From NCBI GenBank assembly GCA_031413715.1, contig JANOFO010000001.1, positions 1 through 51,785 of the forward strand: a DNA stretch of 51,785 nucleotides, written 5' to 3'. The notes under the pieces are model-generated. The model was not told the origin of the DNA. It did not search any database and saw nothing but the letters and a program-made list of their open reading frames with translations. Every line of letters starts with the position of its first letter. The stretch's first letter is position 1. The stretch comes from Minisyncoccota bacterium. Its GTDB lineage: Bacteria; Patescibacteriota; Minisyncoccia; Phycocordibacterales; UBA9973. The translations under genes and the position numbers were made by a program. Below are positions 6,301 to 47,874 of the stretch, one piece after another.

Positions 6301-6382
6301 GCGCGAGTGGCGGAACTGGTATACGCGTACGATTGAGGTTCGTATGGAGCAATCCTTGGAGGTTCAAGTCCTCTCTCGCGCA
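6301..6382 (+). tRNA. tRNA-Leu(GAG)
   Basis: GCGCGAGTGGCGGAACTGGTATACGC; anticodon arm TACGA-TTGAGGT-TCGTA; long variable arm; GGTTCAAGTCC. Confidence 0.95.
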
Positions 6383-6392
6383 CATTTAAAGA

Positions 6393-6422
6393 AAGAAAAT
6401 CCGACAATTGTCGGATTTTCTT
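6393..6422. terminator. 30-bp perfect palindrome after tRNA-Leu, probable terminator
   Basis: AAGAAAATCCGACAATTGTCGGATTTTCTT. Confidence 0.55.
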
Positions 6423-28631: not shown

Positions 28632-29060
28632 ATGCTAGTAGAGAAAATAGATCCAAAAGAAAAGCGCATAGTATTTGTCTACACAACCTGTCCTTCTTTG
28701 GACCAGGCTAGGTCTATGGGCCTTTCGGCTATTAATGAAAAACTTGCAGCCTGCGTGGATTACTGGTCTATCGGCTCTATCTACCCCTGGAACGGCGTTA
28801 TTCAAGACGTCGAGCAATATATGCTCATGCTCACAACCGAGAGAAATGTATCTGAGAAACTTGTAAAGTATATCGGCGGACTTCATCCTTATAGTACTCC
28901 TATGATTGCACGAATGGATACAGCATATATAAATCAAACATACAGTTTCTGGGTAGATAATATATTTAATACTAAAGGAGAATACATATCAGAACTCCAG
29001 GCGGAAGAAGAAGCAATCAGCGAAGCGGAAGACGGATACCACTTTGGCAAACTCAAATAG
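28632..29060 (+). CDS. cutA: Divalent-cation tolerance protein CutA
   Basis: VYTTCP, KLAAC, SIYPWNG, HPYSTP. Confidence 0.9.
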   Translation: MLVEKIDPKEKRIVFVYTTCPSLDQARSMGLSAINEKLAACVDYWSIGSIYPWNGVIQDVEQYMLMLTTERNVSEKLVKYIGGLHPYSTPMIARMDTAYINQTYSFWVDNIFNTKGEYISELQAEEEAISEAEDGYHFGKLK

Positions 29061-30995
29061 TATAATCAGCATAAGCGATCGCTTGCATTGATTATAATCA
29101 TATGAACTCCGAAACAAAAAAATGCCAGAATTGTAAAAATAACTTCACAATAGAACCTGAAGATTTTTCATTTTACGAAAAAATAAAAGTTCCTCCACCG
29201 ACATTTTGCTCAGAGTGTAGATTACAAAGACGATTGGCTTCTTATAATATTCGTACTCTCTATAGGCGAAATTGTACTAAATGTGACAAATCAATAGTGT
29301 CTATATATGCGGGCGATTCTGAATCAAAAGTATACTGTACTGAATGTTATTTTAACGATGATCTGGATCCATTTTCATATGGTAGAGATTATGATTTCTC
29401 TCGTCCATTTTTTGAACAATTTGCCCAATTAAGGAAAGACGTGCCCCAGTTGCATGTAAGACACTCAAACAATAATGGCGAAGGTTGCGAGTACGCGAAT
29501 TCCTCTTCAAACTCTTCCCATGTCTATCTTTCATATGGAGTTGTAGGATCAGAGCATATTTATTATGGGTATCTTATCAATAAAGCCAATCGAATGTGTG
29601 TTGATTGTTTAAATATTAAAAAAAATGAAATAGGGTATGAACTTGTAAATTCAACAGGTAATTTTCAGTGTTCTTACCTGACTGATTCTCTTCAATGTAT
29701 CGATTCGTCTTTTCTATTTAACTGCTTCAATTGTCAGAATTGTTTTATGAGTAGTAATTTGCGTAACAAAATTTATTGTTTCAAGAACGAACAACTTTCA
29801 AAGGAAGAATATCATAAAAAAGTGGCGGAATTAAAAACTGGGAATATTGATAACTTTGAAAATCTTGTGAGTGAATATACTGAAATGCTCATGAAAGCTA
29901 TTCACTGCTATGCAACAATAATAAAATCTGAAGATTGCACAGGGGATATGATAGAGAATTGTAGCAATGTAAAATATTCTTTTAATGTGTGGGGTTGTCA
30001 AAACTTAAAATATACAGCATTTTTAATGAATTTAAATTCAGATTCTTATGATCTAACAGTCTCTGGAAAAGGAGAAAGGACATACGAATTAGTTACGAGT
30101 GGTGGGGGTAATTTTGATTCTAAATTTTGTCATAGGGCACAAGGTGGATCAAATGTAGAGTATAGCGATACCTGTAAAGGGGTAAATAGTTTGTTTGGAT
30201 GTGTTGGAATTCGAAATAAAGATTATTGTATTTTAAATAAACAGTATGCAAAGGAAGAATTTGAGATACTTCGAAAAAAAATCATTGCGCACATGATTGA
30301 AATGCCCTACGTAGATAAAATAGGTAGAACATATGCTTATGGAGAATATTTCCCAATAGAAATTTCTCAAGCGGCTTATAACGAAACCTTAGCAATAGAA
30401 CAATTTCCACTTTCAAAAGAAGAGGCTCTACAGCAAGGGTATAAATGGCGCGATATGATAAATAAAGATCATGAGACTACTATCGATACTACGCAATTAG
30501 AGAAAGATATAAAAGATGTTACAGATGGTATTTTTAAACACACTATTTTGTGTCGACATGAAGGTGTATGTGGTCACCAATGTACAAGGGGATATAGGAT
30601 AATAAAAGAGGAACTTGATTTTTATAGACAAATGAATTTACCTCTTCCAAGATTTTGTCCTAATTGTCGCTATCATGAAAGGTTGAAAAGGAGAAATCCA
30701 TGGAAGCTCTGGAAAAGATCTTGCATGTGTACGCTATTAAATCATACTCATGAAAGCAAGTGTCATAATGAATTTGAAACAGCATATAGCCCAGAGAGTA
30801 AAGTGTTAATTTTTTGTAAAAGTTGTTATCAACAAGAAGTAATCTAATATAATCAACACAAGCGATCGCTTGCATTGATTATAATCATATGAACTCCGAA
30901 ACAAAAAAATGCCAGAATTGTAAAAATAACTTCACAATAGAGCCTGAAGATTTTTCATTTTACGAAAAAATAAAAGTTCCTCCACCGACGTTTTG
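29061..30995 (+). repeat. 148-bp direct repeat (29061-29208, 30848-30995) starting with a 36-bp imperfect palindrome
   Basis: Four mismatches by manual alignment; core AAGCGATCGCTT flanked by TATAATCA/TGATTATA. Confidence 0.92.
29102..30847 (+). CDS. Cys-rich protein, paralogue 2
   Basis: Same architecture as 21694-23382. Confidence 0.85.
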   Translation: MNSETKKCQNCKNNFTIEPEDFSFYEKIKVPPPTFCSECRLQRRLASYNIRTLYRRNCTKCDKSIVSIYAGDSESKVYCTECYFNDDLDPFSYGRDYDFSRPFFEQFAQLRKDVPQLHVRHSNNNGEGCEYANSSSNSSHVYLSYGVVGSEHIYYGYLINKANRMCVDCLNIKKNEIGYELVNSTGNFQCSYLTDSLQCIDSSFLFNCFNCQNCFMSSNLRNKIYCFKNEQLSKEEYHKKVAELKTGNIDNFENLVSEYTEMLMKAIHCYATIIKSEDCTGDMIENCSNVKYSFNVWGCQNLKYTAFLMNLNSDSYDLTVSGKGERTYELVTSGGGNFDSKFCHRAQGGSNVEYSDTCKGVNSLFGCVGIRNKDYCILNKQYAKEEFEILRKKIIAHMIEMPYVDKIGRTYAYGEYFPIEISQAAYNETLAIEQFPLSKEEALQQGYKWRDMINKDHETTIDTTQLEKDIKDVTDGIFKHTILCRHEGVCGHQCTRGYRIIKEELDFYRQMNLPLPRFCPNCRYHERLKRRNPWKLWKRSCMCTLLNHTHESKCHNEFETAYSPESKVLIFCKSCYQQEVI

Positions 30996-32625
30996 TCCGG
31001 AATGCTCGCATCAGCGCCGATTTGCGTGGCGTAATACACATGCACTTTACCATCGAAAAGATTCGATAACCGGAAAAGATATAGTATCGATCTATCATCC
31101 CGATACGAAGATGAATGTCGTAGATCAAAAATATTGGTGGAGTGACGAATGGGATCCTTTTGATTATTCGAGAGAGTATGATTTCTCAAGACCATTTTTC
31201 ACTCAATGGAAAGAATTACGAGATACCATTCCTTTTCAAGCACTTTCTAATTCAAAAGCAGTGAATAGCGAATATTGTAACGTAGCCGAAGAAAGTTATG
31301 ATTGTTACCTTATTTCTGCTTGTTGGAAGAATGAACGTGTAATGTATTCAGATTCAGTACTAGAAGTTAAAGATTCTTCTGATTTATATATAGTTCAAAA
31401 AAGCGAATTTTGTTATGAAGACATGTATTGCACTAATTCGTCAAATATTTTTTATTGTGAACAAACAAACTCTTCTATTGACTCATACTTTCTCTATGAT
31501 TGTCATGGATGTGTAAATTGTTTTATGTCTTCAAATTTACATAATAAAAGTTATATGTTTGAGAATGTACAATATTCAAAAGAAGATTATTTTAAAAAAT
31601 TATCTCAATATAATCTTGGAAGTTATAAAACCATAGAAGTATTAAAAGAACAGTTTAAAATCCTGAAATTAAAATCATTACACAAATACGCTACAATTAT
31701 AAAAAGTAATAATGTAACGGGGGATCATCTAAGTAACGTTGTGGATAGTCAATATATTTTTGATGGATCAAATAATGTTAAAAACTGTAAGTATCTTTTT
31801 TGGGTAACTTATAATATTTTTGATTGTTATTATTGTAATGCAATTGGAATGCTTGAAAATAGTTTTGAAATGAATGACTCTGGAGTAGGAGGATCAAATT
31901 GTAATTTTTCGAGCGTAGTCTACGATTCTAGAAGTATTGAATATTCTTTCAATTGTTATAATAGTAATGATTTATTTGGATGTATTGGCTTGCGTAATAA
32001 ATCTTATTGCATTTTAAATAAACAATATTCAAAAGAAGAATATTTTAAATTATTGCCTAAAATTATAGAACATATGAATAATATGCCATATTTTGACAAA
32101 TTAAAGAGAGTATATAAATATGGTGAATTTTTCCCAATTGAACTTTCTCCATTTGCATATAATGAGACATTAGCCAATAATTTTTTTCCACTCACAAAGG
32201 AACAAATAAAAGAGAAAGGCTTTTTGTATAGAGACAAGGAAGAAAAGCAGTATATGCCAACTTTAACTACTGACAATATTCCAGATCAAATTTCAGACAT
32301 AGAAGATTCGATACTTGATCAGGTTATTTCATGTGATACACTCCCAGACTCAGATCGTTGCACGATAGCTTTTAAGATCATTAAAGATGAGCTTATCTTT
32401 TATAAGAGGTTTAATATACCAATTCCACGACAATGTTACCAATGCCGACACAAAGCTCGGTTTAATAAAAGAACGCCTCTTGAACTCTGGCACAGATCTT
32501 GTATGTGCGATAAAGAAGGTCATGTCCACATGGGGAAGTGTACAAATGAATTTGAAACTAGTTATTCTCCCGAGAGGCCGGAGATTATATACTGTGAAAA
32601 GTGCTATCAAGCAGAAGTCATGTGA
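30889..32625 (+). CDS. Cys-rich protein, paralogue 3
   Basis: Same architecture; first 36 aa identical to paralogue 2. Confidence 0.85.
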   Translation: MNSETKKCQNCKNNFTIEPEDFSFYEKIKVPPPTFCPECSHQRRFAWRNTHALYHRKDSITGKDIVSIYHPDTKMNVVDQKYWWSDEWDPFDYSREYDFSRPFFTQWKELRDTIPFQALSNSKAVNSEYCNVAEESYDCYLISACWKNERVMYSDSVLEVKDSSDLYIVQKSEFCYEDMYCTNSSNIFYCEQTNSSIDSYFLYDCHGCVNCFMSSNLHNKSYMFENVQYSKEDYFKKLSQYNLGSYKTIEVLKEQFKILKLKSLHKYATIIKSNNVTGDHLSNVVDSQYIFDGSNNVKNCKYLFWVTYNIFDCYYCNAIGMLENSFEMNDSGVGGSNCNFSSVVYDSRSIEYSFNCYNSNDLFGCIGLRNKSYCILNKQYSKEEYFKLLPKIIEHMNNMPYFDKLKRVYKYGEFFPIELSPFAYNETLANNFFPLTKEQIKEKGFLYRDKEEKQYMPTLTTDNIPDQISDIEDSILDQVISCDTLPDSDRCTIAFKIIKDELIFYKRFNIPIPRQCYQCRHKARFNKRTPLELWHRSCMCDKEGHVHMGKCTNEFETSYSPERPEIIYCEKCYQAEVM

Positions 32626-34392: not shown

Positions 34393-34395
34393 ATT

Positions 34396-35607
34396 ATGAA
34401 ATTTAAATACAAAACACAAACAAAAGATCGAGGTATCATTGAAGGTATAAAAGAATCACCTGACAAATTTACGCTTGCCCGCGAGCTTCGAGATCAAGGC
34501 GACATACCCCTGTCTATAGTGGAAGCTAGTGATAAAAAAAAGTTTTCTCTGAAAATAAATTTGTTCAGTCATGTTTCTCTCAGGGAGAAGATAGTATTTA
34601 CCAATAACCTTGGCGGCATGCTCACTGCAGGTCTGTCTTTGACTCGCGCACTCTCTATCTTGGAAAAGCAAACCAAGAATCCCTCGCTTACAAAAGTCCT
34701 CACAAGCATCATCGATGATATCAATCGCGGTAATACCTTATCAGATGGGATGAAGAAGTTTCCCAAAGTATTCTCTGGACTCTTTGTCTCCATGGTCCAT
34801 TCTGGCGAAGAATCCGGGGGATTACCGCAAGCACTTTCTGAGGTTGGGCTTAACCTAAAGAAATCGTACGACTTAAACAAGAAAATCAAAGGAGCCCTCA
34901 TGTATCCGTCAATTATCCTAGTCGCTATTTTCTTGATTGGAATACTTATGATGATATTTGTTGTACCAACGCTAACAAAAACATTTAAAGATCTAGGAGG
35001 AGAACTTCCTAGTTCTACCAAGTTCGTCATTTGGCTCTCGGACACAATAAGTCAGCATACGCTTCTTTTCCTATTTGTTATCGGATGTATTGTTGGCTTC
35101 TTTGTACTTTTTGCTAGACTTGAGATTACCCGTAAATATTTTGATTACATAGTTTTACGCTTACCTATCGTCGGTGGGATTGCCAAGGAGGTCAACACTG
35201 CTCGTACTGCTCGAACGCTATCCTCACTCCTCTCCTCGGGAGTCAATCTCTCTCGAGCTCTTAACATAACCGAGGAAGTTCTCCAAAATCTTTATTATAA
35301 AAGGCTGATTCGCCAAGCGATTGTATCAATTGAGAAAGGATCCGCCCTTTCAGCATCTTTCAAAGGCGATACCTTTCTTTATCCTGTCATGATGGGGGAG
35401 ATGATCGAGGTGGGCGAAGAAACGGGAAATCTCTCCAAAATGCTTCTTGATATTGCAGTATTTTATGAATCCGAAGTCGATAACAAGACAAAAGATCTCT
35501 CTACTATCATAGAGCCTGTACTTATGGTTTTCATCGGTGGGGCTGTTGGATTCTTCGCTGTCTCGATGATCTCGCCTATGTATTCGGTTATGAACGCTAT
35601 CAAATAA
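34396..35607 (+). CDS. pilC: Type IV pilus platform protein PilC/GspF
   Basis: GEESGGL, ALMYP, GEETGNL, IIEP. Confidence 0.95.
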   Translation: MKFKYKTQTKDRGIIEGIKESPDKFTLARELRDQGDIPLSIVEASDKKKFSLKINLFSHVSLREKIVFTNNLGGMLTAGLSLTRALSILEKQTKNPSLTKVLTSIIDDINRGNTLSDGMKKFPKVFSGLFVSMVHSGEESGGLPQALSEVGLNLKKSYDLNKKIKGALMYPSIILVAIFLIGILMMIFVVPTLTKTFKDLGGELPSSTKFVIWLSDTISQHTLLFLFVIGCIVGFFVLFARLEITRKYFDYIVLRLPIVGGIAKEVNTARTARTLSSLLSSGVNLSRALNITEEVLQNLYYKRLIRQAIVSIEKGSALSASFKGDTFLYPVMMGEMIEVGEETGNLSKMLLDIAVFYESEVDNKTKDLSTIIEPVLMVFIGGAVGFFAVSMISPMYSVMNAIK

Positions 35608-35610
35608 GAA

Positions 35611-35952
35611 TCACTGTTTCTTTTTGAGTTTTATATACGCAAAGATGAATATAATAATCGTTAAAGGAATGATTATCCACCAGAGAAAAGACGATGAACC
35701 GCGCTCTGGCTGATCATCAGTAGAAGACTCCTGTATAGGCATTATTTGATCGATCGGTTCCTCTATGGATGTCGGAGCAGAAGGATCCACGGTAGAGTTC
35801 ACATTACCAGAAACATTGGGATATGCATTTTGAGGTATTGGTTGGAGTGATTTGCTGTCTGGGAATATAGCTCTCTTTGCTGCCAAAGTGGGCGTACTAT
35901 TGATGGTAAAAATTCCTAGTAAAATTATTATAACCGAAAGTATTTTTTTCAT
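35611..35952 (-). CDS. Small exported protein with C-terminal TM anchor
   Basis: Signal peptide, Pro/Ser linker, TM plus KKKQ tail. Confidence 0.65.
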   Translation of the reverse strand: MKKILSVIIILLGIFTINSTPTLAAKRAIFPDSKSLQPIPQNAYPNVSGNVNSTVDPSAPTSIEEPIDQIMPIQESSTDDQPERGSSSFLWWIIIPLTIIIFIFAYIKLKKKQ

Positions 35953-35964
35953 GCCTCATTATTA

Positions 35965-37368
35965 TTAATTGCTAATCCAGCTTAATTGCTTGTAACCTGC
36001 AGACGAGAGAGGGAAGCTCGGAGGTGGAGCGTAGAGAAGATTGTTATCGTACGTGCTGATAGTATTCGTAAATCCTGATACATTATTACCACTACCATTT
36101 ACCCAAGTCCATGTCCATTGTCCGAAGGTCATGATAGATCCATATATCGTAATACTATTTTTTATTGGCGGATTGGTCTTGTAGAGAAGAAATTGAGTAC
36201 TTCCATTCTGTGAGATAAGCGCAGCATCGATTTCTAAATTTGTCGGAGCACTTGGAGTAACAATAATATCTTTCTGAGAGAGGAGTCCTAGAACATGAGT
36301 GCCATCTTTAGCAAGGTAGGTGAGATTTTTTGGTAAATATATATTTGGCGCTGTTGTTGCTATATAAGGAAGTTTAGCCGCTGCAACCATAACCCTGCCA
36401 TTGACTGTGCCTTCTACCCACGTATTATCTTCTATATACATAATGCCGTTAGCAGGCATTGCTACAGTGTATTGAAGACTTCTGTTGTTGTAATCAATAT
36501 TTTCATTATGAGCTATATTATTCACATCCCAGCCAGTCGGAGTATCTATGAGAGAGGTAACTTTATAGATTGAAACGGTTCCGGCACTGTTGAATACCAA
36601 TGAATAGCCGTTGGTATTTGATGGCGGTAAATATATTCCACCAGCTAGGGCCAGTGTTTTCATATTAGCCAAGTTTGAAGTAAGGGCTGAGAAATCTACA
36701 GCTGGTACGGGGAACTGCCAAAAATTCTTGACCGCCTGAGTAGCGGAACCCCAGATTCCATTCCTCGTTGCAGGACAAGGGCTGCCTTGGCTAGACGGAC
36801 ATGTATATGTGGACTTTACAGATCCTATTGGGGCGTTGCCCATTCCGTCAAAGCGTATGCCGTTGTTGGATTGCATTTGACCATTAACTGTCTCACTTGA
36901 GCCGATCCAGATGACGTCATTAGAAAGGAATGAGTATACAGCCAAAGATGGAATACCATATCTGGCTGTAATTGTCCGTTTAGCTGAAGGATTGAGTGTA
37001 GTCCAGCCTGTGGATTCGATCATGACTATTGTAGAACCATTAGTCGGTTGCGTTATAACAAGAGAGTACTGGCCGACTACAGCTTGAGTGTCTGTATCTA
37101 TATAGTTGTGAACATACGGTCCACTGGCGCCCGTCCCGTCTTTATAATCAGTAGGATAGTGAGCCAAGTGCCACTGATAGTAGTTGATTCCAGCCTCAGC
37201 GATCTGTAAGGCCTGCTCTCTAACCGCATTTACTTTTATAGATTTACTTACTAACGCAACCCAATTGATGATAGGGAACATCGTTACAGAAAAAATAAAA
37301 ATAATAAAAAGCAGAAGTAGTATTACTTGCCCACTATTTGATTTCTTCGTTTTGGTATTCATTTTCAT
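35965..37368 (-). CDS. PilX-like minor pilin
   Basis: SG|QVILLLL prepilin-like site; QALQIAEAGI. Confidence 0.8.
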   Translation of the reverse strand: MKMNTKTKKSNSGQVILLLLFIIFIFSVTMFPIINWVALVSKSIKVNAVREQALQIAEAGINYYQWHLAHYPTDYKDGTGASGPYVHNYIDTDTQAVVGQYSLVITQPTNGSTIVMIESTGWTTLNPSAKRTITARYGIPSLAVYSFLSNDVIWIGSSETVNGQMQSNNGIRFDGMGNAPIGSVKSTYTCPSSQGSPCPATRNGIWGSATQAVKNFWQFPVPAVDFSALTSNLANMKTLALAGGIYLPPSNTNGYSLVFNSAGTVSIYKVTSLIDTPTGWDVNNIAHNENIDYNNRSLQYTVAMPANGIMYIEDNTWVEGTVNGRVMVAAAKLPYIATTAPNIYLPKNLTYLAKDGTHVLGLLSQKDIIVTPSAPTNLEIDAALISQNGSTQFLLYKTNPPIKNSITIYGSIMTFGQWTWTWVNGSGNNVSGFTNTISTYDNNLLYAPPPSFPLSSAGYKQLSWISN

Positions 37369-37371
37369 TGA

Positions 37372-38019
37372 TTAGTTTCCTAAATTAGTTTTCAAGTTTC
37401 TAATCGCTGCTCCTCCGCTAATCGTAAATGTACTGGTCGAAGCGGCAGCAGCTTGCTTGAGCACAATCAGATTCATCTTTATGAATTTAACCTGATTGAT
37501 ATTGACTGGCTGAGTAATAGGGTTCCCTGATCCATTATAATTCCCATCGTAATAATAAAATAGCGGACTTACTCCGAGCGACATATCAGTAATAAGCTTA
37601 GTGATGACCTCGGTTCCATTATATGATAGGGGATTACCCGACGGATCAGTTACTCCCTTATAGAGTGCACCAGAAGATATATAGTATCTCACCTTCGATA
37701 CTACTCCGTTTCCTTTGGGTGAAGTTGAAAAAAATATTATCTGAGTATCACCAGCTGAAGCCACCGGGTAAGCTCCATTTATGCCATAAGCTCCGTTGCG
37801 GAGTTCATTCATAAAAGTATTAGCTACTCTCTTTGCCTGATCTATGTTGTTGAGTACCAATCCTTGTTGCTTGCTAAATGTGAGGATATTTTTCATCAAT
37901 AGTGTTGTTCCCATCATTAAAATTCCCGAGACAAATATGACCACGAGAGTTTCTGCAAGGGTAAATCCTCCCTGGCGCGAGCCGCGGCTTCCGTATTTTG
38001 TTTTTAGGAATTTATTCAT
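37372..38019 (-). CDS. Prepilin-type (PilW/PulJ-like) minor pilin
   Basis: G|FTLAE methylation motif. Confidence 0.85.
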   Translation of the reverse strand: MNKFLKTKYGSRGSRQGGFTLAETLVVIFVSGILMMGTTLLMKNILTFSKQQGLVLNNIDQAKRVANTFMNELRNGAYGINGAYPVASAGDTQIIFFSTSPKGNGVVSKVRYYISSGALYKGVTDPSGNPLSYNGTEVITKLITDMSLGVSPLFYYYDGNYNGSGNPITQPVNINQVKFIKMNLIVLKQAAAASTSTFTISGGAAIRNLKTNLGN

Positions 38020-38023
38020 AATG

Positions 38024-39847
38024 TTAATTAGACGTTAGTGATATTGATAGTGTTTGATATCCGTCCACATCTAGATCGGTAATCGTCTTTGTCAGGTAAC
38101 CGGGCATACTTATATCTAGTTGATAATTCGATGACGAAGCGATTCCAGGGAAAATCACTTGTCCTGGAGTGAAACATCCTGAAACGTAATTTATGCCTAT
38201 GCTCGTGAGCGTTGGGTTTTTAGATGTATCAGTCGTAGATAGGTAAGCCTTGTACCGCACGTATCTGTTTGAATTGTGGGCACTACTAATAGTTATTCCT
38301 GGTGTTGTATAGTATGTTGTACCCGTTCCGTCTGGACCAATAAAATTCCAGGTTTCATTATCATTGTTACTAGCGATTTGAAATTTTACCTCTGTTGCAG
38401 GATCCTGAGAGGTTGGTTGCCAATTGAGCGTGGTATACGAAGTGAGAGAACTTCCTGTATCGAACGTGGAAGATGTGAGTGATCCGCTGTTGACCAAGGT
38501 AGTACCGTTGCTGTTTACCAATCGTACAGCTAGTGGCGTGTCGGTAGTACTTATCCCTCCATCATCTGACCAGTATTTTAGAATATTACTCCAATCAGCT
38601 TGCCCGGAACCGCTACTCCACTCTTCTTGATTCCAAAGACTTCCACCTGTTATCAAACTAGTATCAAAAGTTAACCCCGGATTTGTTAATTGAACGGTTG
38701 CCCCCTCTATAGGATTGCCGGTTGAGCCATCTTTAACGATTATAAGTAAACTATGTGCGGTGTTATCACCTAAAATTAAATTGAATGTCTGAGTAGTGTT
38801 TGGCAAGAGGTTGATCTGTTGGATCGGAGAAGATCCATAAATCATATACGTAGTGCCAGTAAGAGCCGGAGTATAATTATCCCACTCGGTATTGCTGAGT
38901 TGTATCTGTCCGCTACTATTTGATGTATATGTATTATCGAACTTCAAAACATTTGGAGTACCGATTAGTTTCGCTCCTTTTATCCCAAGCCCTACTGATC
39001 CTATAGCAGTGCATGTTTGATTGAGAGTATTGAATGTCAAACCACTCGTTTGATCTATGGCGAAACTGATTTGGGTGACTTGACCATCCAATATTGTGGC
39101 ATCTGGCTTGGTTGGATTTGGATTTGAAACACTTGTTGGATACGTCTGATCAGATGAATGACCGGCCTTCGTAACGGTTATGTGATAACTATTTGGACTA
39201 TCAGGAAGTCCGACTTCTATCCATCTACCCTGGGAGTCGCTTGTTCTTGTTAGGTTGATGCTTGGATTGATAGCTGTGTTTGTAATATTAATACTTGCTC
39301 CCGGTACTGGCTGACCGACAGCATTTATGATACTAAGCGACAGCGCCCCACCACTCGTCATGTTCTCAAGTCCAGTTGGTACAATATTTGTGACGAAATT
39401 TGTAATTACACTTGTCGTCGTATTTTTTACTGAGAGCTTGACTTGTTTGTAATCATTCGGCGCCGGATCTGTACCCAAGATTATCGTACCATCGGCTGGG
39501 TCATCAAAATAGGTAACCTCATAATAAATCTGATATGGTATAGCGCTTACTGTGACAGTTCCCGGGTTAGCAGAGTCCGGTAAAGTGCCATTCGGATTTC
39601 CTTGGGCTGTTCCGATCTGGGCGTATGCCACATTACGAGCAATTTCCAAATATTGACTGGCGAGATTAGATACTGTGGTGCTCTCCCAATTTTCTGTAGC
39701 TCCTTTTGAAACTATGGAAAATGTCTCATAGACGACACCTGCAAGCATGGCAAAAATAGCAATACCAATCATAGTCTCTATAAGTGTAAAACCTGCCTGC
39801 CAACAATGATAGTCTCTTGCACTCTCTATTTTTAAGAATTTGCTCAT
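38024..39847 (-). CDS. Large prepilin-type protein with carboxypeptidase-regulatory-like beta domains
   Basis: G|FTLIE; GQPVPGASI and TGNPIEGATV repeats. Start 39847 (or 39871). Confidence 0.82.
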   Translation of the reverse strand: MSKFLKIESARDYHCWQAGFTLIETMIGIAIFAMLAGVVYETFSIVSKGATENWESTTVSNLASQYLEIARNVAYAQIGTAQGNPNGTLPDSANPGTVTVSAIPYQIYYEVTYFDDPADGTIILGTDPAPNDYKQVKLSVKNTTTSVITNFVTNIVPTGLENMTSGGALSLSIINAVGQPVPGASINITNTAINPSINLTRTSDSQGRWIEVGLPDSPNSYHITVTKAGHSSDQTYPTSVSNPNPTKPDATILDGQVTQISFAIDQTSGLTFNTLNQTCTAIGSVGLGIKGAKLIGTPNVLKFDNTYTSNSSGQIQLSNTEWDNYTPALTGTTYMIYGSSPIQQINLLPNTTQTFNLILGDNTAHSLLIIVKDGSTGNPIEGATVQLTNPGLTFDTSLITGGSLWNQEEWSSGSGQADWSNILKYWSDDGGISTTDTPLAVRLVNSNGTTLVNSGSLTSSTFDTGSSLTSYTTLNWQPTSQDPATEVKFQIASNNDNETWNFIGPDGTGTTYYTTPGITISSAHNSNRYVRYKAYLSTTDTSKNPTLTSIGINYVSGCFTPGQVIFPGIASSSNYQLDISMPGYLTKTITDLDVDGYQTLSISLTSN

Positions 39848-39892
39848 AAGAATCTCTCTAAATTCTATCATATTTCATGGTATACTTACCAC

Positions 39893-43523: not shown

Positions 43524-45233
43524 ATGTCGAATCATGTCGAATTCCTTGAACTTCTCTTAAAAAACCGCAGTATCGCGCCCGAAGATAGAGAGCGTTTTCT
43601 CAATCCATCTTATAAAGATGATCTCTACAATCCGTATCTCATGAAAGATATGGAGCGTGCAATTGTCCGAATATTTGAAGCTACCGAAGCAAAAGAAAAA
43701 ATAGTTATATATAGCGACTATGACTGCGATGGGATCCCAGCTGCGGTTATCATGCATGATTTCTTTAAGAAAATTGGATACGAAAACTTTTCGATATATA
43801 TTCCGGATCGGCATGACGAAGGCTACGGACTCCACAAAGATGCAATAGAAGAATTTATAAAAACAGGAGTCAAACTGCTCGTGACATTTGATCTAGGCAT
43901 CACTGCGGTAGACGAAGTAGCGCAAGCACAAAGCGCTGGTATGGATGTGATCATTACTGATCACCATCTTGTTCCGCGTAGCTCGGATAAGAGCGAAGTG
44001 GGATTGCCAGAACAAATCTTACCACCAGCCTTCGCTATTATAAATCCCAAGCAAAGTGATTGCGAATATCCTGATAAAAATCTATGCGGAGCAGGCCTCG
44101 CTTACAAGCTTGTCCAAGCTCTTATAAAAAAATACGGCGAATATTGGAAAATACAGGAAGGGTGGGATAAATGGCTTCTTGATATGGCCGGACTTGCAAC
44201 ACTTGCCGATCAAGTCCCGCTCCTTGGCGAGAACCGAGTGCTTGCTTACTACGGCCTTAAAGTTTTACAAAAAGCGCGTCGCCCTGGACTCTTGGAGCTT
44301 TTCCGCAAAGCAGGAGTTGATATAAGTAAAATCTCAGAAGAAGATATTACTTTTACATTGGCCCCTAGACTCAATGCCGCTTCGCGTATGGGAAGCCCGA
44401 TGGATGCATTCCTCGTACTTGCTACTAGTGATGCGGTAGAAGCCAAAACTATTGCTGATCATTTAGCCAAGATTAATGATGAGCGCAAGCAGATTGTGGC
44501 GCATATTATGAAAGATGTAAAGAAAACTCTAACTAAAAGAGAAGAGAAATCTCTTATTGTTATTGGTAACCCAAATTGGAGAGTTGGTATACTAGGACTA
44601 GTAGCTTCAAAAATTGCTGAGGAATACAAGAAGCCAGCCTTCGTCTGGGGATCGGAAGGTAGCGATACAATTCGAGGGTCATGTCGCCTGCCTGCGCAGG
44701 TAGGGGGATGGGGAAATATAAACTTAGTATCTCTTATGACAAGTTTGCCAGAGAATAGCTTGCTTGCTTTTGGTGGGCATGTTAGTGCTGGGGGATTCTC
44801 TGTTTCTCACGACGAAGTTCATTTCTTGGAAGAAAGACTCCTTGCCGTTTTTGATGGGATAAAAGACACAAAAGAAAATGCGGAAGCTCAAGCCATCGAT
44901 GCCACAATCACGATGGACGATGTGACTATGGAGAACTATTCTGTGATAGAGAAACTTGCACCTTATGGCACAGGGAATCCGAAGCCGACATTTATGTTTA
45001 GCGATGTTCCTATAACAGCAGTCAAGGAATTCGGCAAGGAAAAAAACCATCTTGAGCTTATGTTTACTAATAGTCGCGGGCGTCCAGTCAAAGCTATTAC
45101 TTTCTTTAAAGATCGTACGAGCTTCAATCGATCAATTTCTGCTGGTGAGCGGATAAATCTGACCGCTACATTTGATAAAAGCACATTCGGCGGTCGCACC
45201 GAACTCCGACTTCGAATTGTTGATATAATATAG
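43524..45233 (+). CDS. recJ: ssDNA exonuclease RecJ
   Basis: DYDCDG, ITDHH, PRLNAASR, GGH, PYGTGNPKP. Confidence 0.95.
   Translation: MSNHVEFLELLLKNRSIAPEDRERFLNPSYKDDLYNPYLMKDMERAIVRIFEATEAKEKIVIYSDYDCDGIPAAVIMHDFFKKIGYENFSIYIPDRHDEGYGLHKDAIEEFIKTGVKLLVTFDLGITAVDEVAQAQSAGMDVIITDHHLVPRSSDKSEVGLPEQILPPAFAIINPKQSDCEYPDKNLCGAGLAYKLVQALIKKYGEYWKIQEGWDKWLLDMAGLATLADQVPLLGENRVLAYYGLKVLQKARRPGLLELFRKAGVDISKISEEDITFTLAPRLNAASRMGSPMDAFLVLATSDAVEAKTIADHLAKINDERKQIVAHIMKDVKKTLTKREEKSLIVIGNPNWRVGILGLVASKIAEEYKKPAFVWGSEGSDTIRGSCRLPAQVGGWGNINLVSLMTSLPENSLLAFGGHVSAGGFSVSHDEVHFLEERLLAVFDGIKDTKENAEAQAIDATITMDDVTMENYSVIEKLAPYGTGNPKPTFMFSDVPITAVKEFGKEKNHLELMFTNSRGRPVKAITFFKDRTSFNRSISAGERINLTATFDKSTFGGRTELRLRIVDII
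43968..44003. repeat. Probable in-frame hairpin insertion (36 nt) right after the DHH motif of recJ
   Basis: TTCCGC-GTA-GCTC-GGATAA-GAGC-GAA-GTGGGA, encoding LVPRSSDKSEVG. Confidence 0.55.
44687..44704. repeat. In-frame 18-nt palindrome in recJ
   Basis: CCTGCCTGCGCAGGTAGG (LPAQVG), 17/18 identical to 45440-45457. Confidence 0.8.
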
Positions 45234-45236
45234 CTT

Positions 45237-45716
45237 ATGAGTAAGGCAATCGAAATATATACTGACGGATCATCACTAGGCAATCCAGGCCCGGGTGGGT
45301 GGGGGGTAGTGGTTACAGATGGCAAGGAAATCCTAAAAGAAATTGGTGGTTGCGATAAACATACGACAAATAATCGCATGGAACTTTTGTCGGTAATCTC
45401 AGCTTTAAAATATATATTAGAATATCATAAAGATAGTGGCCTGCCTGCGCAGGCAGGAGTCATAATACATGCTGATTCTACATATGTTCTTGGGGGAGTG
45501 ACGACATGGATAGAAAACTGGGAAAAGAACGGCTGGAAGACTGCTAACAAAAAACAGGTCCTGAATCAGGATTTATGGCAGGAACTTATCGCTCTTGTGC
45601 GTTCGTATACTGGAAAGCTCTCTTGGCAGAAAGTCAAAGGCCATGCTGGCGTGCTTCATAATGAGCGTGCTGATGAGATTGCTACTAAATGCTCATCACT
45701 ACAGAAAAACTATTAA
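45237..45716 (+). CDS. rnhA: Ribonuclease HI
   Basis: YTDGS, GNPGPGGWG, TTNNRMEL, DSTYV, VKGHAG, NERAD. Confidence 0.96.
   Translation: MSKAIEIYTDGSSLGNPGPGGWGVVVTDGKEILKEIGGCDKHTTNNRMELLSVISALKYILEYHKDSGLPAQAGVIIHADSTYVLGGVTTWIENWEKNGWKTANKKQVLNQDLWQELIALVRSYTGKLSWQKVKGHAGVLHNERADEIATKCSSLQKNY
45440..45457. repeat. In-frame perfect 18-nt palindrome in rnhA
   Basis: CCTGCCTGCGCAGGCAGG (LPAQAG). Confidence 0.85.
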
Positions 45717-45755: not shown

Positions 45756-47060
45756 GTGATTTCCAAGAAAGAAATTATTGCAATAATCATTCTTGTCTTG
45801 ATCGCTCTTGTGCGGTTTTTCTTTTTCTTGCCAAAAACGCCAGACTATACAAATGCAGTAGGGAATAAAGTGACTGTGGAAGGAATAGTAACAAGACCTC
45901 CTGATGTGAGGCTTAACAATATTCACCTTACTATTACTCCCAAGAATCAAGAAGCAAATATCTTGGTCATTACAAGCGATCTCTATCAAGATGATAAAGC
46001 AGAATACGGCGACTTTGTGAAAGTTGTAGGCGTATTGGAATCACCAGAGAATTTTGTTACGACATCTGGCAAGGAATTTAATTATGAACGCTACTTAGCC
46101 AACCAAGATATTTATTTTATTATCAAAAACACAGAAGTTGAAATCCTGTCAAAGGGTAATGGCAATAAAATAAAATCCGTCTTATACAAATTCAGAGATA
46201 AATTTATATCGCATGTCGAGGAAATCATCGATCCGCCAGAGAGTGATCTTGCGAGTGGTTTAGTCTTAGGTACTCGAGGTGGTTTCGACAATGCTACACG
46301 CGATGAATTTATATCTACCGGCACTATTCATATTGTGGCACTCTCAGGCTACAATGTAACTATTGTAGCCGAGGGCGTCATGAGAATCTTGGGACTAATC
46401 CTTGCGCAAAGTGCTTCCATCGTCTTTGGTATTATTGTCATAGTTCTGTTTATCATAATGGCAGGTGCATCTTCTACTGCTATTCGTGCAGGAGTTATGG
46501 CTACAATTTTACTCTTTGCTCGAATGACAGGGCGCACTTATAGTGCAGGCAGGGCTCTCGTTATTGCGGGACTTGTCATGATCGCTTATGACCCTCGTGT
46601 TCTTACAGATATATCTTTCCAGCTTTCATTTCTGGCTACAGGGGGAGTACTCTTTATAACTCCCAAAGTCATACGATGGGTTAGATTCTTGCCTATGCAA
46701 TTTGGCTTTCGCGAGCTCGTATCTTCTACTATCGGAGCGACTATTGCTGTACTTCCACTTTTGCTCTATACAACAGGAATACTCTCAATAGTATCTCTTC
46801 CTGCCAACATCCTGATACTGCCACTTATTCCGATCACTATGCTATTTGTATTTCTCACAGGCATGCTCGGATTTATATCTACTGTCATTGCTTTGCCTTT
46901 TGCCTATATATCCCACCTGCTACTTTCGTATATACTCTCTATGATTCACTTCTTTGCATCTTTGCCGTTTACAAGTGTCACAATACAAACATTTCCACTA
47001 ATTCTGACTATAGTTTTGTACGGGCTCCTCATCTGGTGGGTGCTTATAAAAAGGTCTTGA
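45756..47060 (+). CDS. comEC: ComEC/Rec2 competence channel (OB plus competence domains)
   Basis: FNYERYL, HIVALSGYNV, AIRAGVM, SFQLSFLAT. Confidence 0.92.
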   Translation: MISKKEIIAIIILVLIALVRFFFFLPKTPDYTNAVGNKVTVEGIVTRPPDVRLNNIHLTITPKNQEANILVITSDLYQDDKAEYGDFVKVVGVLESPENFVTTSGKEFNYERYLANQDIYFIIKNTEVEILSKGNGNKIKSVLYKFRDKFISHVEEIIDPPESDLASGLVLGTRGGFDNATRDEFISTGTIHIVALSGYNVTIVAEGVMRILGLILAQSASIVFGIIVIVLFIIMAGASSTAIRAGVMATILLFARMTGRTYSAGRALVIAGLVMIAYDPRVLTDISFQLSFLATGGVLFITPKVIRWVRFLPMQFGFRELVSSTIGATIAVLPLLLYTTGILSIVSLPANILILPLIPITMLFVFLTGMLGFISTVIALPFAYISHLLLSYILSMIHFFASLPFTSVTIQTFPLILTIVLYGLLIWWVLIKRS

Positions 47061-47212: not shown

Positions 47213-47246
47213 ATTAGCCCGGAAAAGCAGCCGGGCTAATTTTTTT
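47213..47246. terminator. Terminator hairpin
   Basis: ATTAGCCCGG-aaaagcag-CCGGGCTAAT followed by a T run on +. Confidence 0.7.
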
Positions 47247-47874
47247 ATTGCGCCTTCTTAAAATTTTCTTCTATTACTTCCCAGTTGAGATTTGCGAAAA
47301 ATTCTTCTATGTATTTTTTCTTTTCACTTGTTGGATAGTCGTATACATACGCATGTTCCCACATATCAAGACATAGAACAGGGGAGAGCCCTGTAAGTTG
47401 TCCCAGATGCTGCTCTTCTACCCATTGGGTCAATAGATGGCCGCTTTGTTTATCAAAGTAGAGCATTGCCCAGCCCACACCTCGGGTCATAGCTATAGCT
47501 TTGAATCTATCAATAAAGTTGTCCACTTTACCCCATTCTTTCTCTAGAGCAAAAGTAAGGGTGTTTCCAAAAGGTAGACGTGCGGGACCTTTTTCGAGTG
47601 ATGCAAAATAGTATTCGTGGTTGCGCATACCGTCAAACTCAAAAGCGAATCTGCGCTGAAGTTCTCCTAATACGTATGCATTTGTCTCGCTGTCCCCGCC
47701 CGAATGACCGGAATCATCCGGTCGGGCAGGCTTCGCATATTCGTTGATTTTATTTAAAATCAGATTTGCATTCTTAACATAGCCCTCGTAGAGCTTTATA
47801 TGCTCTTCGATATTTTTTTTACTAATACCAGTAAGGTCTGGGATATTAAATGTTTTAGGTAGAAATGTTTCCAT
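47245..47874 (-). CDS. Fe/Mn superoxide dismutase family protein
   Basis: EHIKLYEGYV, NHEYYF, GVGW, LDMWEHAY. Confidence 0.92.
   Translation of the reverse strand: METFLPKTFNIPDLTGISKKNIEEHIKLYEGYVKNANLILNKINEYAKPARPDDSGHSGGDSETNAYVLGELQRRFAFEFDGMRNHEYYFASLEKGPARLPFGNTLTFALEKEWGKVDNFIDRFKAIAMTRGVGWAMLYFDKQSGHLLTQWVEEQHLGQLTGLSPVLCLDMWEHAYVYDYPTSEKKKYIEEFFANLNWEVIEENFKKAQ
47695..47730. repeat. In-frame 36-nt nested hairpin in the SOD gene
   Basis: Coding strand CCTGCCCGACCGGATGATTCCGGTCATTCGGGCGGG = PARPDDSGHSGG. Confidence 0.8.

Follow-up and report, generated by a model that had tools for sequence, protein, structure and literature searches.

Why do recJ and rnhA, two neighbouring genes of a patescibacterial genome, carry almost the same 18-nt palindrome, and how did it come to lie in both? 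We addressed this question in the whole stretch of DNA in which the two genes were found (51,785 nt, hereafter the window) and in comparisons reaching well beyond it. The palindrome, which we will refer to as PAL, has a GC content of 78% in a window of 39.9% GC. The original prediction held that rnhA contains a perfect copy and recJ a 17/18 copy, that both are read in a common phase (LPAQAG in rnhA, LPAQVG in recJ) and that deleting either is frame-neutral. Both copies are indeed present (Table 1), the phase is the same, and excising the 18 nt preserves the frame in recJ as well as in rnhA.

Allowing up to three mismatches on both strands, we found exactly two matches to PAL in the window, those in recJ and rnhA, and none of 100 dinucleotide-preserving shuffles of the window gave any match. 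PAL is also the window's only perfect palindrome of at least 16 nt with a GC content above 0.5. As single-stranded DNA it is predicted to form a hairpin of -7.3 kcal/mol, in which the single mismatch of the recJ copy gives a G.T pair (a G.U-compatible change in RNA). The exact 18-mer has a stop codon in none of its six frames, meaning that a gene receiving it gains six residues and stays in frame. The recJ product has homologues named RecJ at 67–80% identity. As had been proposed, the recJ copy comes straight after the GSxR motif of the DHHA1 domain, being preceded by RGSCR and lying within a DHHA1 match that scores 25.6 bits against a cut-off of 25.9 bits.

Table 1. Positions (nt, within the window) of the PAL copies, the related hairpin and their host genes
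Feature	Position	Strand	Description
recJ, host of the 17/18 copy	43524..45233	+	569 aa; Pfam DHH, DHHA1, RecJ_OB
PAL, 17/18 copy inside recJ	44687..44704		CCTGCCTGCGCAGGTAGG; 1 mismatch; reads LPAQVG, residues 389-394
rnhA, host of the perfect copy	45237..45716	+	159 aa; Pfam RNase_H; homologues named ribonuclease HI
PAL, perfect 18-nt palindrome inside rnhA	45440..45457		CCTGCCTGCGCAGGCAGG; 0 mismatches; reads LPAQAG, residues 69-74
sodA, host of the 36-nt element	47245..47874	-	209 aa against the usual 197; Pfam Sod_Fe_C
36-nt composite hairpin inside sodA	47695..47730	-	reads PARPDDSGHSGG; - strand CCTGCCCGACCGGATGATTCCGGTCATTCGGGCGGG

With the composite hairpin in sodA, the window contains three elements in a span of 3.1 kb. 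Its predicted stability (-11.8 kcal/mol, z = -3.9) was equalled in 0 of 200 shuffles, and its 12 residues are missing in 115 of 120 SOD homologues. Judged by its sequence, it is a second element related to PAL, with which it has the CCTGCC start in common. Sibling hairpins were also seen at loci from the genome scan described below, namely CCTGCCGGCAGG at L015 and L018 and CCTGCCGGTAGGCAGG at L019, which have the stem base CCTGCC...GGCAGG in common, and PARLDDPSHSGG is present in the RecJ homologue P0131, where its site is unrelated.

Other candidates in the window were rejected as copies. There are five matches to 9-nt half-sites of PAL (0.11 expected), two of them outside the PAL copies. The half-site at 46545 is native sequence that aligns without gaps to 80 homologues of comEC, a gene that adjoins the PAL copies; the one at 39792, left uncounted, falls by our reading of the DNA within a pilin-like ORF that carries an N_methyl motif, in its N-terminal region. 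Matches with 5–6 mismatches were not convincing (8 observed with up to six mismatches vs. 3.5 in shuffles; the site at 34336, for example, does not fold). A stretch of 12 extra residues after the DHH motif of RecJ (43968-44003) does not stand out as a hairpin (z = -0.19 against shuffles), and 34 other homologues have extra residues in this variable region.

Insertion sites in homologues and predicted structures

The residues encoded by PAL are absent at the window site from 119 of 119 RNase HI homologues and from 120 of 120 RecJ homologues, each set showing a clean 6-aa gap. This goes against one condition that would have refuted the original prediction, namely that orthologues have the same residues. 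A gap at the PAL residues also appears when RnhA is aligned to E. coli RNase HI, a 6-residue gap right after GS[AC]R separates the window RecJ from RecJ 8y30, and a PAL-carrying DHFR shows a clean 6-aa gap against solved DHFRs. Among the matches of the genome scan listed, a flanking direct repeat was entirely absent at 73 of the 100 low-GC loci (defined below), and a 7-nt repeat was found at only 2. At the level of aligned sequence, PAL inserts as an exact 18-bp unit with no target-site duplication.

PAL-type inserts occupy five different sites in RecJ, and the window RecJ and its sister P0139 carry theirs at differing sites. The site after ‘GSD’ has 11 carriers, which require nine gains or losses on a FastTree tree; if only its well-supported branches are considered, the minimum is two events for the 6-aa type and one for the 7-aa type. 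Recombinational allele exchange or repeated loss could account for these scattered carriers instead of repeated insertion. The RnhA homologue P0087 has LSAQAG at a site other than the window's, and a loop of SOD holds LPAQAG in P0258 and P0342 and variants of it in other homologues. Forms of the peptide found in frame in orthologues (LSAQAG, LPAQTG, LSTQIG) show older PAL copies decaying as ordinary sequence does. No movement event, and no filled-versus-empty polymorphism between near-identical genomes, was seen in these comparisons, in which identity to the nearest RnhA homologue reaches only 77%.

In AF2 models the PAL peptides sit in loops, in line with the proposal that the palindrome adds peptide loops. 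Specifically, the RnhA insert belongs to a coil (residues 67–74) between helix 45–66 and strand 75–79, in the block of lowest pLDDT, and the RecJ insert forms a low-confidence coil after strand 382–388. LPAQAG is a small, uncharged peptide.

Genomic spread, flanks and reading frame

We scanned 185,579 species genomes (a 596-Gb collection) for the exact 18-mer and found it at no fewer than 125 loci, compared with a chance expectation at 40% GC of 0.8 loci across the whole collection; locus counts given here are lower bounds, and proportions among the matches listed may be biased. The original prediction would have fallen had the genome pair stood alone, and instead PAL recurs in other genomes, where most of its flanks are unrelated (all but eight small clusters of the listed loci). 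GC content is at most 0.52 at 100 of the 125 listed loci (the low-GC loci); the 25 loci above it may be chance matches. According to their record titles, 75 of the 125 matches listed are Patescibacteria of many classes and some are Bacteroidota, and ten are titled uncultured Gammaproteobacteria or Pseudomonadales (the RecJ at L043 is 35% identical to our RecJ set). PAL is found in isolate genomes too (Litoribacter ruber, Rosettibacter primus). Perfect copies number three on a 599-kb contig and one on an 840-kb contig, or roughly 1–5 per Mb. Among the matches listed, 5 of the 13 assemblies with at least two perfect copies have a pair no more than 5.7 kb apart, and a second copy with one mismatch was found at 4 of the 80 loci having 2-kb flanks. 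These matches show PAL at numerous unrelated sites, in a wide range of Patescibacteria as well as some Bacteroidota. The earlier picture of a mobile element is supported with adjustments: the palindrome extends beyond this one genome, is low-copy, and its mobility is something we infer.

Host genes of PAL include those for TopA, PolA, DnaG, UvrC, tRNA synthetases, ribosomal proteins, SOD and DHFR. With crude ORF calls (longest ORF, greedy), an ORF of at least 60 aa spans PAL in 89 of the 125 listed loci, 54 of these ORFs having Pfam families; when only spanning ORFs of at least 100 aa are considered, 54 of 76 among the matches listed have families of the housekeeping type. A spanning ORF of at least 100 aa is lacking at 42 of the 100 listed low-GC loci, as against about 8% of non-ORF DNA in the window, meaning that non-coding copies are about five-fold over-represented among the matches listed. 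The idea that PAL colonises coding DNA where intergenic space is scarce agrees with the 92% ORF coverage of the window and needs adjusting for the roughly 42% of low-GC copies that are non-coding. Runs of T follow some non-coding copies.

Among the matches listed, about 80% of flanks show a purine at position -1 or, correspondingly, a pyrimidine at +1, and this preference also holds for the listed non-coding copies (63 of 84). We looked for a longer element or an extended palindrome around PAL at Patescibacteria loci and rejected both, as 66 of the 100 low-GC loci lack a complementary flank base; a single Sphingobacteriales MAG has PAL as part of larger repeats. The reading frame is strongly biased: at Pfam-confirmed low-GC loci among the matches listed, 35 copies read LPAQAG, 6 PACAGR and 2 CLRRQ (chi-square p = 1.5e-10), when the flank preference predicts a share of only about 33% for the LPAQAG phase. 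Since target preference leaves this bias unexplained, PAL is probably translated, with selection on the peptide deciding which insertions persist. Most coding insertions outside the LPAQAG phase would then have been purged, which would explain the excess of non-coding copies.

Putative mobilisation and competing explanations

Being too short and encoding nothing, PAL is unable to move by itself. No transposase, HUH or GIY-YIG domain was found by Pfam among the 47 window ORFs, in keeping with the earlier remark that no mobilising enzyme is visible there. The original prediction had suggested looking for an HUH/RAYT or GIY-YIG gene flanked by copies: GIY-YIG ORFs occur at two loci, and the 119 ORFs within 1.3 kb of the listed non-coding copies include no Y1/HUH transposase (RAYT). 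The GIY-YIG ORFs belong to a group of five of the 125 listed loci (L029, L040, L041, L045 and L114) that share one PAL position: the element follows nt 10 and precedes nt 11 of a tRNA-Gln sequence, either a fragment or a second copy, that adjoins an intact tRNA-Gln. A small GIY-YIG ORF adjoins PAL at L029 (Pfam E = 3e-14) and L041 (E = 4e-13), and L114 has a similar adjacent ORF, but with an in-frame stop; the ORF at L040 has no family, and at L045 no ORF separates PAL from the tRNA. The ORFs at these tRNA-Gln loci received no name from NCBIfam. In the set of 119 ORFs neighbouring the matches listed, GIY-YIG is the only nuclease beside any PAL copy, and only at tRNA-Gln loci. DDE transposase genes lie 130–380 nt from PAL at L013 and L074, in one Sphingobacteriales MAG, with nothing similar at the Patescibacteria loci among the matches listed.

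Our preferred reading, to which we assign a probability of about 0.7, is that the recJ and rnhA sequences are copies of a non-autonomous, non-coding 18-bp palindromic mini-element that is mobilised in trans and filtered as a peptide. A hairpin-recognising enzyme, from the host or from a mobile element, would copy PAL; our guess at the mechanism is that the hairpin transposes as a single strand in the manner of IS200/IS605-RAYT, which would fit the hairpin itself, the missing duplication, the clustering of copies and the siblings built on the CCTGCC...GGCAGG stem base. Each insertion in a gene would add a six-residue surface loop, with the LPAQAG phase mostly surviving and other coding insertions mostly purged. 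Several observations sit awkwardly with this reading, among them that the low copy number of PAL is unusual for a selfish repeat and that the identity of the 18-mer over deeply diverged classes ill fits neutral parasitic DNA, as it would need either insertion ongoing everywhere or selection on the sequence itself.

One explanation without a transposon, which we consider unlikely, is that PAL is a break-repair filler: a GIY-YIG or other nuclease would cut the DNA and the hairpin would be copied in from another PAL, so that copies mark past cleavage sites. The shared position at the five tRNA-Gln loci and the GIY-YIG ORFs at two of them speak for this, and the missing target-site duplication and local clustering would fit repair tracts. 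Nevertheless, among the 119 neighbouring ORFs the nuclease was confined to these tRNA-Gln loci, it was not found among the 47 window ORFs, two of those loci offer either no intervening ORF (L045) or one without a family (L040), and their common position could represent a single old insertion travelling with a mobile cassette.

Less probable still is that PAL is a recognition sequence under selection (a DNA-uptake signal, protein-binding site or terminator hairpin) whose spread reflects its function. Such a role would account for an identical 18-mer in very distant lineages and for the many genome-maintenance hosts (recJ, rnhA, topA, polA, dnaG, uvrC, a uvrD-like gene and exonucleases), and both the adjoining comEC and the T runs would suit it. 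The uptake sequences DUS and USS of Neisseria and Pasteurellaceae are likewise short fixed sequences that occur within genes, favour certain frames and are enriched in genome-maintenance genes; they arise from substitution and uptake bias and number about one per kb. PAL resembles them as an intragenic fixed sequence in a preferred frame but comes as a whole 18-nt insertion, not by point substitution, and is rare per genome, its density on the two large contigs being far below theirs; its coding copies also decay in orthologues.

We regard as very improbable an element acting in RNA, with the hairpin excised or bypassed in the mRNA and the six residues never made: the hairpin is stable in the RNA sense strand too and the recJ mismatch is G.U-compatible, but the phase bias exceeds what flank preference predicts, the element's length divides evenly by three and no frame contains a stop, and decayed copies remain in frame. 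That PAL is a sequencing or assembly artefact, or an ordinary lineage-specific loop that merely looks inserted, is barely credible even though most records are metagenome-assembled genomes, given several assemblers and studies, the two isolates, the in-frame decayed variants, the phase bias and the recurrence of identical nucleotides, synonymous positions included, in unrelated genes.

Known palindromic repeats and implications

In the literature searched, we found neither the exact 18-mer nor the peptide LPAQAG, and nothing relevant on palindromic insertions in Patescibacteria or the Candidate Phyla Radiation. Rickettsia palindromic elements (RPEs), as described in a MITE review, are about 150 bp long and known from Rickettsia (PMC10969869). 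There they appear, like PAL, as palindromic selfish DNA lying in frame in housekeeping genes that are unrelated to one another, in a genome that is reduced, and translated as an added, fold-compatible peptide, with a mobilising enzyme that is unknown (PMC10969869); PAL differs from them in having 18 bp and six residues and in extending over a whole superphylum and beyond. REPs are described as extragenic, imperfect palindromes of 20–40 bp with high copy number and a GTAG or CGTC end tag (PMC3733652; PMC3116915). PAL shares with REPs and REPINs a short GC-rich hairpin, no coding capacity and no target duplication, but is a perfect 18-mer, low-copy and mostly inside genes, with no RAYT nearby (119 flanking and 47 window ORFs); neither tag occurs in the perfect 18-mer, whose flank offers only the purine at -1. 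REPs and REPINs are thought to be moved in trans by RAYT as single-strand hairpins. Of the two analogies drawn originally, RPEs match the in-frame behaviour but not the size or hosts, and REPs the hairpin but not the location, copy number or tag.

Other systems show similar partial likenesses. Compared with a MITE, the whole of PAL is one inverted repeat and there is no target-site duplication; compared with the IS200/IS605 type, hairpin and lack of duplication agree, but the target signal is limited to the purine at -1 and the pyrimidine at +1. Elhai and colleagues reportedly described in 2008 small dispersed repeats of cyanobacteria, about 21–27 nt long, hairpin-forming, mobile-like and sometimes inside genes. 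These are lineage-specific and high-copy in Nostoc, whereas PAL is shorter and found in more than one phylum. Yeast mitochondrial GC clusters are GC-rich palindromic sequences spread through an AT-rich genome, including the coding gene var1, by a mover that is unknown; they are organellar and of several classes, some with short flanking repeats, whereas PAL is bacterial, shorter and without a flanking repeat.

By its appearance, PAL ranks with the smallest selfish DNA elements yet known. A bolder version of the preferred reading, which we offer tentatively and consider less likely than not, is that PAL is the smallest mobile element reported and represents a new way of moving DNA: an 18-bp hairpin served by a trans-acting enzyme conserved across Patescibacteria and some Bacteroidota, still hopping locally and continually writing six-residue loops into proteins essential for replication, repair and translation, with only the LPAQAG phase kept and the tRNA-Gln/GIY-YIG loci perhaps holding the source copy or the enzyme. 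This raises the question of which enzyme places an exact 18-mer without duplication in anciently diverged lineages. In practical terms, PAL-type inserts depress domain scores and may misguide alignments (as for DHHA1 of the window RecJ), they provide a natural map of six-residue tolerance in RecJ, RNase HI, SOD, DHFR, polymerases and tRNA synthetases, and PAL is a marker by which the recombination and descent of uncultured Patescibacteria can be followed. If the preferred reading is confirmed, the size floor for mobile-element-like DNA would drop to 18 bp, and selfish DNA would be seen to keep remodelling proteins that are essential to the most streamlined of known bacteria.

The palindrome as an insert in recJ and rnhA

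We found two copies of the 18-nt palindrome (PAL) in the window, one perfect and one in which the single mismatch forms a G.T pair (see table), and no further match on either strand at up to three mismatches. PAL-like matches occurred in 0 of 100 dinucleotide-preserving shuffles of the window (GC content 39.9%), and PAL is the only perfect palindrome of at least 16 nt there with GC above 0.5. The two host genes are adjacent, the copies are spaced 753 nt apart, and both are read in a common phase (LPAQVG in recJ, immediately preceded by RGSCR, and LPAQAG in rnhA). As single-stranded DNA, the rnhA copy is predicted to fold into a hairpin (-7.3 kcal/mol) in which 7 bp of stem close a 4-nt loop. 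All frames of PAL are free of stop codons and, being a palindrome, it yields the same three peptides (PACAGR, LPAQAG and CLRRQ) from either strand.

The original prediction that orthologues would show clean six-residue gaps at these positions was borne out by the alignments. The nearest homologues of the window RnhA and RecJ come from Patescibacteria (deposited as Patescibacteria group, Paceibacterota and Nomurabacteria). All 119 RNase HI homologues have a clean 6-column gap at KDSG-LPAQAG-VIIH, and all 120 RecJ homologues lack residues at RGSCR-LPAQVG-GWG. At the rnhA site the solved structure of E. coli RNase HI shows a gap, RecJ structure 8y30 has a 6-residue gap directly past GSAR, and without the 18 nt both genes return to their usual spacing. 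PAL enters as a whole unit. The searched sets contained no RnhA relative above 80% protein identity in which to read a DNA-level empty site. In the AlphaFold2 model of RNase HI (mean pLDDT 90.2), residues 67-74 are predicted as a coil leading from helix 45-66 to strand 75-79, with the insert coil in the lowest-confidence block (72). The RecJ model (mean pLDDT 76.4) shows a low-confidence coil at the insert, after strand 382-388; as this model is poor across the whole insert region, placement in a loop is tentative there.

The window also contains two 9-nt PAL half-sites, one of them within the N-terminal part of a pilin-like ORF (as read from the DNA). The other, in comEC, which directly follows rnhA, was rejected as a PAL copy, being native sequence with no gap relative to 80 homologues. 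A type IV pilus-like set lies upstream and, with comEC, looks like a competence-type toolkit beside the palindrome cluster. Elsewhere, a 160-nt direct repeat (94% identical) spans the upstream regions of two tandem ORFs together with their 5' ends; the ORFs are a tandem gene duplication with short palindromes common to their upstream regions, and a perfect 30-nt AT-rich palindrome just 3' of tRNA-Leu, abutting the msrA ORF start, is probably a terminator.

Coordinates of features (positions in the window unless a scan locus, L-number, is named)
Feature	Coordinates	Strand	Evidence or context
PAL, perfect copy CCTGCCTGCGCAGGCAGG	45440-45457		in rnhA; sequence match, 0 mismatches
PAL, 17/18 copy CCTGCCTGCGCAGGTAGG	44687-44704		in recJ; sequence match, 1 mismatch
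recJ	43524..45233	+	DHH, DHHA1, RecJ_OB domains (Pfam)
rnhA	45237..45716	+	RNase_H domain (Pfam)
Extra residues in recJ LVPRSSDKSEVG	43968-44003		12 residues immediately after DHH motif
PAL half-sites	39792-39800; 46545-46553		9 nt each
comEC	45756..47060		
Pilus-like set	32638-39871		T2SSE ATPase, T2SSF platform protein, two N_methyl pilin-like ORFs
sodA	47245..47874	-	host of 36-nt hairpin
36-nt two-stem GC-rich hairpin, read as PARPDDSGHSGG	47695-47730	-	inside sodA
160-nt direct repeat	29058-29217; 30845-31004		
Tandem ORFs	29102..30847; 30889..32625		581 and 578 aa; no Pfam family
tRNA-Leu	6301-6383		
AT-rich palindrome	6393-6422		
msrA ORF start	6421		
Obg stretch with PAL	L057 1974-2093		
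tRNA-Gln/PAL arrangements	L029 1724-2104; L041 1940-2400; L114 173-318; L040 1990-2473; L045 1990-2115		

Recurrent insertion and related elements

Similar inserts stand at other sites in the homologues (P-numbers denote aligned sequences). In RecJ, LPAQAG lies right behind the DHH motif in P0139, and in P0149 and P0156 it follows 'GSD', 7 residues upstream of the window site. Nine more homologues carry LPAQTG, LSAQAG, LSTQIG (two), LPADEAG, LSDNEVG, LSVDAGG, LSAEQAG or VSDDTER at the 'GSD' site, and these forms are decayed or longer PAL versions; old copies decay. P0140 and P0176 have LPAGEAG or LPTGQAG after residue 448, and in RecJ at L043, a locus of the genome scan, the exact 18-mer is present at residue 338, a fifth site. 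Among 120 aligned RNase HI sequences, P0087 is unique in having LSAQAG at a different site.

In a quick FastTree phylogeny of 121 RecJ sequences, built with the insert columns omitted, the window protein, P0139 and P0133 form one group (support 96); the PAL sites of the window RecJ and P0139 differ, and P0133 has no insert. The 11 'GSD'-site carriers are scattered on this tree, requiring 9 gains or losses; well-supported branches alone demand at least two events for the 6-residue type and one for the 7-residue type. The simplest reading is repeated insertion at a favoured site; the scatter may instead reflect recombinational allele exchange, or repeated loss. The spot behind the DHH motif is itself variable, with 12 extra residues in the window recJ, where the DNA folds no better than shuffles, and 1-22 in 34 other homologues.

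PAL has sibling elements, i.e., hairpins sharing its stem base: CCTGCCGGCAGG at loci L015 and L018, CCTGCCGGTAGGCAGG at L019 and two 20-nt forms at L034. The sodA hairpin, a longer relative of PAL, folds at -11.8 kcal/mol (z = -3.9), a stability reached by 0 of 200 shuffles, and adds 12 residues that are missing in 115 of 120 SOD homologues. Related 12-mers occupy the same place in three homologues (PARTTDGVQSGG in two, PARPHESSGAGG in the third), in P0245 the insert columns contain 8 unrelated residues, and P0258 and P0342 have LPAQAG a few residues off, with variants in others. Since a related 12-mer (PARLDDPSHSGG) occurs at an unrelated site in RecJ homologue P0131, the sodA hairpin represents a second in-frame insert family.

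The three window elements (in recJ, rnhA and sodA) lie within 3.1 kb. Among the matches listed, 5 of 13 assemblies with at least two perfect copies have a pair 1.5-5.7 kb apart, and 4 of 80 loci with 2-kb flanks have a second, one-mismatch copy; by contrast, a 599-kb contig carries three perfect copies and an 840-kb contig one. This clustering is suggestive of local hopping or repair tracts.

Distribution, insertion sites and reading phase

A scan for the exact 18-mer in one genome per species (185,579 species, 596 Gb) gave at least 125 loci, all derived counts being lower bounds (flanks: 2 kb for 80 loci, 300 nt for the remainder). By a hand count of record titles, with depositors' labels, at least 75 loci belong to Patescibacteria lineages, at least 17 to Bacteroidota (including the isolate Litoribacter ruber) counted together with one Rosettibacter, at least 10 to uncultured Gammaproteobacteria or Pseudomonadales (titles that may not give the real affiliation; the L043 RecJ is 35% identical to the RecJ set), at least 8 to 'bacterium' only and at least 15 to other phyla. 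Patescibacteria titles among the matches listed are WWE3, Microgenomates, Paceibacterota and Gottesman-, Woese-, Beckwith-, Shapiro-, Dojka-, Sacchari-, Kaiser-, Nomura-, Yonath-, Zambryski-, Uhr-, Magasanik-, Wildermuth- and Staskawiczbacteria. Chance would yield 0.8 matches if the collection were 40% GC and 13 at 52% GC; at least 100 of the listed loci are low-GC (GC <=0.52), and the 25 listed above 0.52 may well be chance matches. With the palindrome masked, 200-nt flanks of the matches listed form just 8 small similarity clusters and are otherwise unrelated; PAL occupies many independent sites. In one Sphingobacteriales MAG (seven loci: L013, L035, L036, L074, L080, L086, L106) and two more Bacteroidota MAGs (L109/L116; L005/L046), PAL is part of larger intergenic repeats that are themselves dense in further GC-rich hairpins, some followed by T runs.

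At the 100 listed low-GC loci, a flanking direct repeat is absent in 73, 1-3 nt long in 25 and 7 nt in 2, i.e., PAL inserts without target-site duplication, and the palindrome stops at the PAL ends in 66. The sole flank signal is a purine before PAL and a pyrimidine after it (about 80% of 200 flanks). As this rule also holds in copies lacking a spanning ORF (63 of 84 flanks), it belongs to the element or its target, not to codons.

Using a crude ORF caller, we placed 89 of the 125 matches listed inside an ORF of at least 60 aa; 54 of the 76 spanning ORFs of at least 100 aa among them had a Pfam family (E <=1e-5). Hosts act in replication and repair (TopA, PolA, UvrD/PD-(D/E)XK helicase-nuclease, UvrC, DnaG, RNase T-type exonuclease, RecJ), translation and tRNA metabolism (ribosomal L15, S19 and L17; PheT, CysS, ArgS, class I and II synthetases, EF-Ts, GatB, TruB, TrmD, Obg), envelope and secretion (FtsW/RodA, SecD/F, Mur ligases, Ddl) and elsewhere (GrpE, SHMT, DHFR, SOD twice). 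The DHFR insert (L082) corresponds to a clean 6-residue gap in solved DHFRs. In Obg (L057), PAL is read as PACAGR and forms part of a larger insert, a Gly/Glu/Lys-rich stretch of about 30 residues for which solved Obg proteins have no counterpart. No ORF of at least 100 aa spans 42 of the 100 listed low-GC loci, whereas only about 8% of window DNA lies outside ORFs; such a roughly fivefold non-coding excess is expected if most coding insertions are lost, and we infer that most have been purged.

Coding copies are filtered by phase. Listed Pfam-confirmed low-GC hosts read PAL as LPAQAG in 35 cases, PACAGR in 6 and CLRRQ in 2 (chi-square p = 1.5e-10). The flank preference was rejected as the source of this bias: at purine/pyrimidine-flanked sites in window genes the CLRRQ phase is commonest (40-45%) and LPAQAG accounts for about 33%, an expectation from which the observed phases depart (p = 4e-11). 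The bias is best explained by selection on the peptide, with the small, uncharged reading kept and the Cys/Arg readings mostly lost. Such selection implies that the mRNA retains the 18 nt, and PAL would therefore be translated.

Candidate movers and comparison with known elements

Consistent with the original prediction that the window shows no mobilising enzyme, Pfam detected no transposase, HUH or GIY-YIG domain in its 47 ORFs, 15 of which lack a Pfam family. Among the matches listed, the 119 ORFs within 1.3 kb of copies without a long spanning ORF are ordinary genes, with two exceptions. DDE transposase genes lie 130-380 nt from PAL at L013 and L074 of the Sphingobacteriales MAG. At five listed loci (L029, L040, L041, L045, L114), a tRNA-Gln 5' fragment or second copy lies alongside an intact tRNA-Gln and is interrupted by PAL between its nt 10 and 11. 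A small GIY-YIG ORF adjoins PAL at L029 and L041 (where dnaX lies upstream) and a similar ORF with an in-frame stop at L114; the ORF at L040 has no family, and L045 has no ORF there. These loci could point to the enzyme or to a source copy, or go back to one old insertion carried by a mobile cassette.

We infer that PAL is moved in trans. By analogy with IS200/IS605 and REP/RAYT, it would move as a single-strand hairpin, the route that fits the anatomy best; PAL lacks the end tag of those systems, and their enzyme was found neither in the window nor among the 119 ORFs near listed copies. The main rival is that a nuclease cut and its repair place PAL, the tRNA-Gln/GIY-YIG loci being the only nuclease link among the matches listed. 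A lesser rival, given the low density of PAL and its arrival by insertion, is that it would serve as a recognition sequence under selection.

Cyanobacterial small dispersed repeats and yeast mitochondrial GC clusters offer further comparisons. The closest described case is that of the Rickettsia palindromic elements (RPEs), which a review describes as about 150 bp long and inserted in frame in unrelated genes (PMC10969869); REPs are described as extragenic repeats of 20-40 bp with a GTAG or CGTC tag (PMC3733652). PAL works like RPEs, REPs and MITEs but fails the tested defining features of each, as it does those of uptake sequences. In the searchable literature (subscription journals and supplements excluded), 0 papers contained the exact 18-mer, 0 contained LPAQAG, and topic searches returned nothing relevant. 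Whole-unit insertion, independent sites and phase filtering support the proposal of a minimal palindrome that colonises coding DNA and adds peptide loops, and PAL is an extreme form among the known kinds of element.
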